Sequence record: NC_055780.1
Reading direction: 5' to 3' (one strand)
DNA: 64,000 nucleotides
Source: Escherichia phage MLF4
Below the pieces are notes generated by a model that worked only from the letters and a program-made list of their open reading frames with translations, was not told where the DNA came from and searched no databases. The first letter of the stretch is position 1; every line of letters starts with the position of its first letter. Below are positions 53,296-54,150 of this stretch, piece after piece. The position numbers and the translations under genes were made by a program.

Positions 53296-53750
53296 TGGAA
53301 TTTAAAGACTTTTCAACGGGTCTTTATGTGGCAGCTAAGTTTTCAGAATTAACACTTGATGCGCTGGAAGAACTTCAGCGCTCTTTACGTGTTCCTAATC
53401 CAGTTCCTAGAGAAAAAATTCATTCGACTATATGTTATTCAAGAGTAAATGTTCCGTATGTTCCATCAAGCGGAAGTTTTGAAGTAGCTTCTTCTGGACA
53501 TTTAGAAGTATGGAAAACACAAGATGGATCTACTCTTGTACTTGTACTAGATTCTGAATATCTGCGCTGTCGACACATGTATGCGCGGGCGCTAGGTGCT
53601 ACACATGATTTTGACGATTACACACCGCATATAACATTGTCTTATAATGTTGGGCCCTTATCATTTAGCGGTGATGTACAAATTCCGGTCGTATTAGATC
53701 GTGAATACAAAGAACCTCTTAAGCTTGATTGGGCAGACGATTTAAAATAA
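53295..53750 (+). CDS. 57B: conserved hypothetical protein, 57B position
   Basis: 151 aa; start overlaps 57A stop; position as in T4. Confidence 0.65.
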
Positions 53751-53770
53751 TTTCACAAAGTTGTTTACAC
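53739..53770 (+). repeat. 32-bp direct repeat copy 1 (3' end of 57B plus early-promoter -35), second copy at 54069..54100
   Basis: GATTTAAAATAATTTCACAAAGTTGTTTACAC identical at both sites; further shared 16-mer TAGTGATACTATTACC at 53781..53796 and 54111..54126. Confidence 0.85.
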
Positions 53771-53792
53771 ACTGATGAGGTAGTGATACTAT
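53763..53792 (+). promoter_or_regulatory. early promoter with overlapping stem-loop (PeSL-like cassette)
   Basis: GTTTAC at 53763, 18-nt spacer, TACTAT at 53787; inverted repeat TGAGGTA...TACCTCA (53776..53799) spans the -10. Confidence 0.6.
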
Positions 53793-53823
53793 TACCTCAT
53801 CAAAATTAATTAGGAAAAATAAA

Positions 53824-54054
53824 ATGAAAACTTATAAAGAGTTTGCTACAGAAACTATTATCACTGAATCTTCTCATGGTATGGAAGTAAAGCTTGGAAT
53901 GGCTTTAGCTGAAGCTGAGCGTCTTTTCTCTCGTATTAAAGAACTTGCTGCTGCAGTCGATCCTTCGTCTTTTAAAGGAGACCAAACTAAAGTTAAAGCA
54001 CTTTTAGCATTATGCTCTGACGCAGGAGAAATCGCTAAAATGGTTCTAAGATGA
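53824..54054 (+). CDS. internal protein (IPI-locus) with capsid targeting sequence
   Basis: 76 aa; N-terminus MKTYKEFATE fits the T4 internal-protein capsid-targeting consensus MK(T/S)YQEF(I/L)xE with an (L/I/A)-x-E gp21-type cleavage site at residue 10. Confidence 0.7.
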   Translation: MKTYKEFATETIITESSHGMEVKLGMALAEAERLFSRIKELAAAVDPSSFKGDQTKVKALLALCSDAGEIAKMVLR

Positions 54055-54068
54055 AGAAACGATTAGAA

Positions 54069-54100
54069 GATTTAAAATAATTTCACAAAGTTGTTTACAC
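54069..54100 (+). repeat. 32-bp direct repeat copy 2
   Basis: identical to 53739..53770. Confidence 0.85.
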
Positions 54101-54122
54101 GGGGTTTTAGTAGTGATACTAT
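54093..54122 (+). promoter_or_regulatory. early promoter (duplicate cassette)
   Basis: GTTTAC at 54093, 18-nt spacer, TACTAT at 54117. Confidence 0.6.
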
Positions 54123-54150
54123 TACCCTATCAACTACTGAGGAGAATAAA

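Follow-up and report, generated by a model that had tools for sequence, protein, structure and literature searches.

Early-promoter cassettes flanking the internal protein gene Ip5 of Escherichia phage MLF4 and their probable part in the variation of a T-even internal protein locus

Introduction

The internal proteins (IPs) of T4-like phages are injected with the DNA and inhibit host type IV restriction by GmrSD in an allele-specific manner (PMC12373910; PMC9391042), so that the content of an IP gene array helps to set host range. Elements flanking IP genes were described for T-even phages in 1994 by Repoila, Tetart, Bouet and Krisch (EMBO J 13:4181). According to the account of that work in Arbiol et al. 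(2010; PMC2839356), and to the same account in Comeau (2014; PMC4122927), such elements occur at T-even IP loci, including the 57B-ipI-tRNA locus, and a role in IP-gene shuffling was proposed for them. As summarised there, each is an early promoter of ~70 nt with an overlapping inverted repeat, and the elements lie on both sides of ORFs with a conserved N-terminal capsid-targeting leader. The model of gene exchange that we favour below was put forward earlier for IP loci in the same two papers, and T4 has been found experimentally to delete and amplify DNA via short repeats (PMC9391042).

A second group of elements, the PeSLs of phages RB49 and phi1, is regarded by Arbiol et al. (2010; PMC2839356) as analogous, and not homologous, to the IP elements. 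A PeSL comprises an upstream stop codon in an A/T-rich tract, a -35, a stem-loop located in between the -35 and -10 elements or over the -10, a Shine-Dalgarno sequence (SD) and a start codon. PeSLs flank small variable genes, and chimeric PeSLs with crossovers in the loop are found at deletion junctions. In addition, the GenBank record of phage RB32 describes Ip9 and Ip7 of a three-gene array as 'flanked by 43 bp direct repeat', a repeat of the same family as the one analysed here, and its annotators state that Ip5 'replaces ipI'.

Here we analyse the IP locus of Escherichia phage MLF4 (NC_055780.1) within a stretch of 64,000 nucleotides, referred to as the window, and compare it with related genomes. 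The phenomenon is already known, having been described for T-even phages in 1994, and no new principle is involved; what is added is a wider sample only, in the form of empty alleles and bipartite cassettes.

Results

A duplicated cassette brackets Ip5

MLF4 is a Tequatrovirus. At its IP locus it shares 99.6% identity with Shigella phage Sf23 and with the Escherichia phages Sa45lw and JY01, and 99% with AR1 and RB51. The genes follow each other on the plus strand in the order gene 1, 57A, 57B, Ip5, tRNA.4, tRNA.3 and tRNA.2 (Table 1). The RefSeq label of 57B is 'RNA ligase'; the Pfam match says Acb1. With 57B as Acb1, the anti-restriction array of IP genes directly adjoins another anti-defence gene. 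On the right, tRNA.4 is the fixed anchor of the array, as seen from the annotations of RB32, T4 and RB6.

Table 1. Coordinates of genes, cassettes and their parts at the MLF4 IP locus.
Feature	Position in window	Strand	Remarks
57B (Acb1, anti-CBASS phosphodiesterase)	53295..53750	+	Pfam PF23474, E 2.6e-60; phrog_755
Cassette copy 1	53735..53803	+	A/T-rich upstream tract, -35, hairpin overlapping -10
Promoter 1 (predicted)	53763..53792	+	GTTTAC 53763-53768, TGn 53784-53786, -10 TACTAT 53787-53792
Hairpin 1	53773..53802	+	13 bp, made up of the arms TGATGAGGTA / TACCTCATCA and 3 inner pairs, -10 at apex
Leader l1	53803..53829	+	SD AGGAAA 53812-53817, then AATAAAATGAAA 53818-53829
Ip5 internal head protein	53824..54054	+	76 aa; phrog_3499, E 6e-41
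Cassette copy 2	54065..54133	+	69-nt repeat, exact 32-mer and 16-mer within
Promoter 2 (predicted)	54093..54122	+	GTTTAC 54093-54098, TGn 54114-54116, -10 TACTAT 54117-54122
Hairpin 2	54101..54128	+	interrupted (5+5 bp): GGGGU..UAGUA-GUGA-UACUA..ACCCU
Leader l2	54134..54156	+	SD GAGGAG 54139-54144, then AATAAAATGAAA 54145-54156
tRNA.4	54151..54336	+	61-aa predicted membrane protein; phrog_1692, E 6e-35

A repeat search of the window returned a 69-nt direct repeat with 86% identity between its two copies and a period of 330 nt. Within it, the 32-mer GATTTAAAATAATTTCACAAAGTTGTTTACAC is present in exact copies at 53739-53770 and 54069-54100. No further site for this 32-mer was found in the 64 kb with up to three mismatches tolerated, and none of 100 shuffled sequences held two or more matches. 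The 16-mer TAGTGATACTATTACC recurs exactly at 53781-53796 and 54111-54126, 10 nt past each 32-mer, and a further 12-nt identity, AATAAAATGAAA, covers the SD-ATG region that follows each copy. The preliminary description of this DNA had claimed the exact 32-bp repeat and the 16-mer at the same distance behind it, with the last codons of 57B inside the repeat, and all of this was borne out. The 32-mer starts with GAT TTA AAA TAA, the last codons of 57B, and repeat copy 1 as a whole contains the last four codons and the stop of that gene.

The corresponding part of copy 2 is also a gene end where Ip5 has its full length. In the full-length Ip5 alleles of RB32, AR1 and Lutter, the first 16 nt of copy 2 encode the C-terminus ...EDLK and the stop, so that the repeat at 53735-53750 and 54065-54080 spans the point where translation ends in 57B (...DDLK and stop) as well as in full-length Ip5. 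Ip5 thus appears to owe its 3' end to a duplication of that of 57B. Downstream of ipI, homology begins only at ATTTCACAAAGTT, past the stop codon.

Ip5 of MLF4 begins MKTYKEFATE..., with MKTYKEF as a leader of the capsid-targeting type, and matches its PHROG profile at positions 1-72 of 85 only. An A-run at 54037-54040 has four A's in MLF4 versus five in RB32 and AR1 (GCTAAAATGG versus GCTAAAAATGG). As a result of this 1-nt deletion, Ip5 ends in ...AKMVLR at 76 aa, nine codons early, where the 85-aa form ends in ...AKNGSKMKKRLEDLK. Either the C-terminus is genuinely truncated, or the homopolymer was misread in sequencing.

The two leaders differ in one respect. The SD of tRNA.4 contains GGAG, and the IP leader has AGGAAA at the equivalent place. 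The T4 endoribonuclease RegB cleaves at GGAG, and with this motif in the tRNA.4 SD only, early decay may proceed differently for the two mRNAs.

The same two-copy arrangement was found in other sequenced genomes, with 250 records covering at least 80% of the locus, including RB51, AR1, PP01, Sf23 and Lutter. That the duplication is private to MLF4, or an artefact of assembly, is virtually inconceivable given this layout in hundreds of independently sequenced genomes.

Each copy contains a predicted T4-type early promoter

T4 early promoters are defined by an UP element, a -35, a TGn motif and a -10 hexamer that has A in position -11 and T in position -7 and is set about 17 nt from the -35 (PMC2988021), and their -35 region is GTTTAC at -36 to -31 (PMC1524935). 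A promoter scan called both cassettes as TTTACA-17-TACTAT with an upstream TG, the 17-nt spacer being counted between those hexamers. The extended -10 is TGA-TACTAT in both copies, and an A/T-rich UP-like tract, GATTTAAAATAATTTCACAAA, abuts the -35 upstream in both. By GTTTAC, TGn/-10 and UP-like tract, the two copies belong, as promoters predicted from sequence, to the T4 early class. The sigma70 consensus TTGACA/TATAAT is matched by the cassette promoter at 9 of 12 positions, and its -35 is the T4-specific GTTTAC. Transcription would be expected to start near A53799 from promoter 1 and near A54129 from promoter 2; the T4 counterparts of these positions lie near 73,903 and 73,536 on the minus strand of NC_000866.4.

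Both orthologous sites are annotated 'promoter' in the Lutter record, and the T4 records AF158101 and NC_000866 have no promoter annotated at this locus. A preprint on T4 dRNA-seq reports 150 phage start sites (bioRxiv 10.1101/2024.04.04.588121). In time-resolved omics of T4, the RNAs of 57A and 57B fall into the middle class, and those of ipI, trna.4, trna.3 and trna.2 into the early class (PMC9697503, supplementary tables). The switch of class thus falls exactly at the cassette after 57B and, by analogy with T4, both promoters would fire early in MLF4. In terms of annotation, MLF4 has two predicted early promoters and an Ip5-type array of one gene, in which Ip5 may be truncated.

No late-promoter motif TATAAATA is present inside the cassettes; going upstream on the plus strand, the first one is met at 52690, in gene 1, and could feed read-through RNA across the cassette late in infection. 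In the whole window the motif occurs 25 times versus 10.1 expected, a number reached by 0 of 100 shuffles.

Could the copies be alike solely because both are strong T4 early promoters that converged on a consensus, with no part in gene gain or loss? T4 early promoters do share an extended consensus beyond the hexamers (PMC2988021), and the invariant core of the cassettes, GTGATACTAT, is the TGn/-10 region. However, the identity between the copies extends over 32 of 32 consecutive bases and includes the spacer and the last codons and stop of 57B, while other GTTTAC...TGnTAnnnT sites in the window (58580 and 59309) have only the hexamers in common with the cassettes. Moreover, cassette segments assort with the neighbouring genes, and empty alleles have exactly the junctions predicted for recombination between copies (see below). 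We therefore consider convergence alone to be most improbable.

The 57B-tRNA.4 interval is polymorphic among relatives

The preliminary description had proposed that the IP gene was gained, or can be lost, by recombination between the copies, and that relatives should include alleles without an IP gene and with one cassette. Such alleles exist, and rather than carrying the same two copies throughout, the relatives are highly polymorphic exactly here. Across 21 genomes, the interval holds zero, one, two or three IP genes. These represent at least five families (Ip5, ipI, Ip9, Ip7 and a 77-aa family), and every gene of an array has its own cassette ahead of it. No IP gene and a single cassette are found in FT, slur02, slur04, slur11, slur13, bov9_1, bov10K1 and Jbel. 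MLF4 and T4 have one IP gene, RB6 (Ip5 and ipI), IME537 and Ozark two, and RB32 three (Ip5, Ip9 and Ip7), with four cassette copies in RB32 and two in MLF4. The span of the locus falls into classes of +0, about +290, +330, +355-375 and +620-670 nt. A scan of IMG/VR with the cassette core yielded 19 loci, several of them unrelated chance matches, which were used as extra genomes and not as a census. The empty alleles together with the arrays of one to three genes support gain and loss of IP genes by recombination between copies.

T4 and G4507 carry ipI instead of Ip5, and the comparison with them shows where identity is lost and regained. Identity to MLF4 is at least 17 of 20 positions up to 53839, 6-15 of 20 over 53840-54079, and 20 of 20 again at 54080. 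The stretch of high identity to 53839 comprises the cassette, the leader and the capsid-targeting codons, and the drop coincides with the part encoding the mature IP.

Cassettes are bipartite

For comparison, 34 cassette copies were split into an upstream flank, a 5' arm (types a, b and c), a 3' arm (x, y and z) and a leader (l1-l3). These segments occur in 16 combinations. The type of the 5' arm tracks the upstream IP gene without exception (22 of 22; 21 genomes), and the 3' arm and leader mostly track the downstream gene, tRNA.4 being accompanied by y-l2 in 16 of 18 cases. The halves join at an invariant core, GTGATACTATTA, which is the hairpin loop together with the -10. The cassettes are thus bipartite, in that the left half goes with the gene before it and the right half with the gene behind it. 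The order of genes in an array is always a subset of Ip5-ipI-Ip9-Ip7/77-aa (21 genomes), and this collinearity fits homologous exchange between collinear genomes, not transposition.

The empty alleles are of three kinds. In FT (a-x-l1), 57B leads straight to tRNA.4, and the single cassette shows no difference from MLF4 copy 1 through its leader, with the join to tRNA.4 at AATAAAATGAAA; the deletion junction maps to the SD-ATG identity of leader l1. Single-piece matches to the FT junction include slur04, slur11, slur13 and bov10K1. In slur02 and bov9_1 (b-y-l2), the end of 57B is joined to a hairpin and leader of the copy 2 type. Jbel (b-y-l3) is a third variant with a different leader. The empty alleles could in principle be ancestral instead of deletions.

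One cassette has a local duplication of its own: on a metagenomic T4-like contig (L027, ~2081, minus strand of the locus), GATACTATTACCTCATCAA is present twice in a 19-nt tandem duplication, which lies inside the cassette and doubles the -10 and the 3' arm.

A hairpin overlaps the -10 of both copies

The -10 of copy 1 had been described as embedded in an inverted repeat. This holds, and copy 2 also has an inverted repeat, weaker and interrupted (Table 1), so that the feature is not confined to copy 1. Folded as RNA, hairpin 1 has an energy of -17.4 kcal/mol (z -5.1; 0/200 shuffles) and hairpin 2 of -12.9 kcal/mol (z -1.93; 9/200 shuffles). The corresponding DNA folds are -8.1 kcal/mol (z -3.65) and, weakly, -5.3 kcal/mol (z -1.7). 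The stem of copy 1 is stable, AT-rich and free of G or C tracts; that of copy 2 is of the form GGGG...CCC, interrupted and weak. Because the -10 lies at the apex of the inverted repeat, transcripts from a cassette's own promoter, begun at the predicted starts, would lack the 5' arm, and hairpin formation would therefore be limited to single-stranded DNA and to RNA that reads through from upstream. Searches of Rfam returned a snoRNA match at chance level only (20 bits versus a gathering score of 55; E = 1), which places the hairpins in no curated RNA family.

We then looked at the arms across cassette types. Between the collinear types a/x and c/y there are two compensatory pair changes, one of G-C to A-U and one of A-U to G-C. 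In nine distinct but related sequences, 90% of cells are paired versus 31-62% in slid registers. Three pairs show changes on both sides, and the covariation score is reached by 9 of 500 shuffles, again for nine related sequences. Hairpin positions accept G-U, and other mismatches are few. This is modest evidence from sequence comparison that structure, rather than arm sequence, may be maintained. A palindromic operator for a protein was judged unlikely, since compensatory changes in the arms point to a constraint on structure and not on sequence. Several chimeric cassettes have weak hairpins, with energies of -4.4 to -9.6 kcal/mol in RB6 copy 2, RB32 copy 3 (-4.4 kcal/mol, z -0.3) and the loci L021 and L027 (both -7.0 kcal/mol). 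As these chimeras persist in viable phages, any function of the hairpin is not essential.

A canonical intrinsic terminator was rejected, the terminator scan being negative at both cassettes. A broader proposal is that the hairpin acts primarily as a terminator or attenuator, as in the PeSLs of RB49 and phi1, and that by shielding each module from transcription that arrives from upstream it accounts for the conserved inverted repeat. Stable RNA hairpins at both copies, the compensatory changes and the tolerance of G-U with few other mismatches speak for this, as does the finding that a PeSL stem-loop stopped transcription in a reporter assay (PMC2839356); the late-promoter motif at 52690 would send read-through RNA over the cassette. 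Against it, no T-run follows either hairpin and the scan made no call at either site, viable phages carry weak or mismatched hairpins, and the IP proteins of T4 accumulate late despite early RNA (PMC9697503, supplement), which implies that full termination upstream would abolish late read-through expression. We regard a primary role in termination as somewhat unlikely. The role that we favour is a dispensable one at the RNA level, as an attenuator or 3'-end stabiliser, with the loop also serving as a crossover segment.

The junctions bear on a different role. If the hairpin were a structure-specific hot spot of recombination, acting as a cruciform or single strand through endonuclease VII or an unknown protein, the IP array would be integron-like. 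In every chimera the cassette halves do meet at the hairpin loop. The loop is, however, the longest invariant stretch, and ordinary homologous recombination favours it anyway. The junctions of FT, in the SD-ATG identity, and of slur02 and bov9_1, in the left 32-36-mer, both lie outside the hairpin; no recombinase gene is annotated in the locus, and the DNA of copy 2 folds weakly. A hot spot of this kind is thus improbable. Quite improbable as well, and unsupported, is a structure-directed recombination site at the -10 hairpin, extruded as a cruciform or single-strand hairpin and cut or bound by a phage factor, with exchange units that run between successive -10 loops. If this were true, injected anti-restriction genes would be swapped at the IP locus much as in an integron, but with no integrase.

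Comparison with described elements

The MLF4 cassettes are IP flanking elements of the type described by Repoila and colleagues. The 69-nt repeat, with a hairpin over the -10 in both copies, corresponds to the ~70-bp promoter with its overlapping inverted repeat. Ip5 is a leader-bearing ORF flanked on both sides, and the same layout is found in T4, RB6 and RB32; the number and identity of IP ORFs vary among the 21 genomes, and their order is collinear. Relative to those elements, as the later accounts present them, nothing essential differs, and MLF4 adds a further genome to those known to have the Ip5 arrangement.

The cassettes had also been called PeSL-like, which is apt for architecture and function but does not extend to membership of that family. 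They share with PeSLs the succession of parts, the flanking of variable ORFs and the presence of single chimeric elements in deletion alleles. The promoter of the IP cassettes is T4-type (GTTTAC), however, whereas that of PeSLs is the E. coli sigma70 consensus. Their stems are weaker and more AT-rich, without polyG or polyC in copy 1, while PeSL stems are often polyG-polyC. By the sequence criterion (T-run or scan call), they also have no terminator signature. The MLF4 cassette falls outside the PeSL family because it lacks the sigma70-consensus promoter, the terminator signature and, in copy 1, the G/C-tract stem.

Integron arrays resemble the IP locus in having ordered small adaptive genes, bounded by imperfect inverted repeats, with a content that varies among relatives. 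In contrast to integrons, the IP locus has no integrase and no attI or attC, each cassette has its own promoter rather than a common Pc, and the junctions are consistent with general homologous recombination. Among the ORFs and annotations from gene 3 to the tRNA genes, no gene for a tyrosine-recombinase integrase was found.

A model for exchange of IP genes

The repeat, the anatomy of the promoters, the hairpins, the polymorphism in the population and the mosaic cassettes are established directly. Early firing in MLF4, the role of the hairpin and the pathway of recombination we infer; polymorphism gives the outcome and not the pathway. Very probably, the cassettes are promoter-leader modules that double as homology for recombination. 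Each copy would be a self-contained T4-type early promoter with its leader, copy 1 driving Ip5 and copy 2 tRNA.4. As the same module of ~70-95 nt, with promoter, hairpin and leader, is present on every gene of the interval, the copies would also serve as stretches of homology that travel with the genes. Whole IP genes would then be deleted, inserted or swapped by general homologous recombination, with co-infecting T4-like phages or the copies in one genome as partners, each gene keeping an intact promoter. If Ip5 were lost through a crossover in the left segment of 32-36 nt, copy 2 would be left, as in the arrangement of slur02 and bov9_1; if it were lost through a crossover in AATAAAATGAAA, copy 1 would be left, as in that of FT. 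The hairpin would most likely act in read-through RNA from 57B and beyond, by attenuation or by stabilisation of 3' ends; this function would be dispensable, and its invariant loop would also be a favoured segment for crossover. Cassettes of this kind would explain how IP genes re-assort rapidly in T4-like phages without upsetting expression.

Features near the array

A plus-strand ORF of 210 aa at 55602-56234, just ahead of the tRNA gene cluster, has Cys/His motifs of the HNH type, and an HNH endonuclease is annotated at the equivalent place in Lutter. A homing endonuclease so near could drive co-conversion of the IP array. At 63250-63723 (plus strand), a second gene with a capsid-targeting leader (MKTYQEFITEAA..., 157 aa) begins a second IP locus; upstream of this gene, no cassette of the Ip5-locus family was found within the window. 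Finally, G4507 (L008, 2767-3147) and PaulHMueller (L009, 2692-3072) have an extra ORF of 381 nt between tRNA.3 and tRNA.2. Shortly after the IP array, there is thus a separate insertion/deletion polymorphism.
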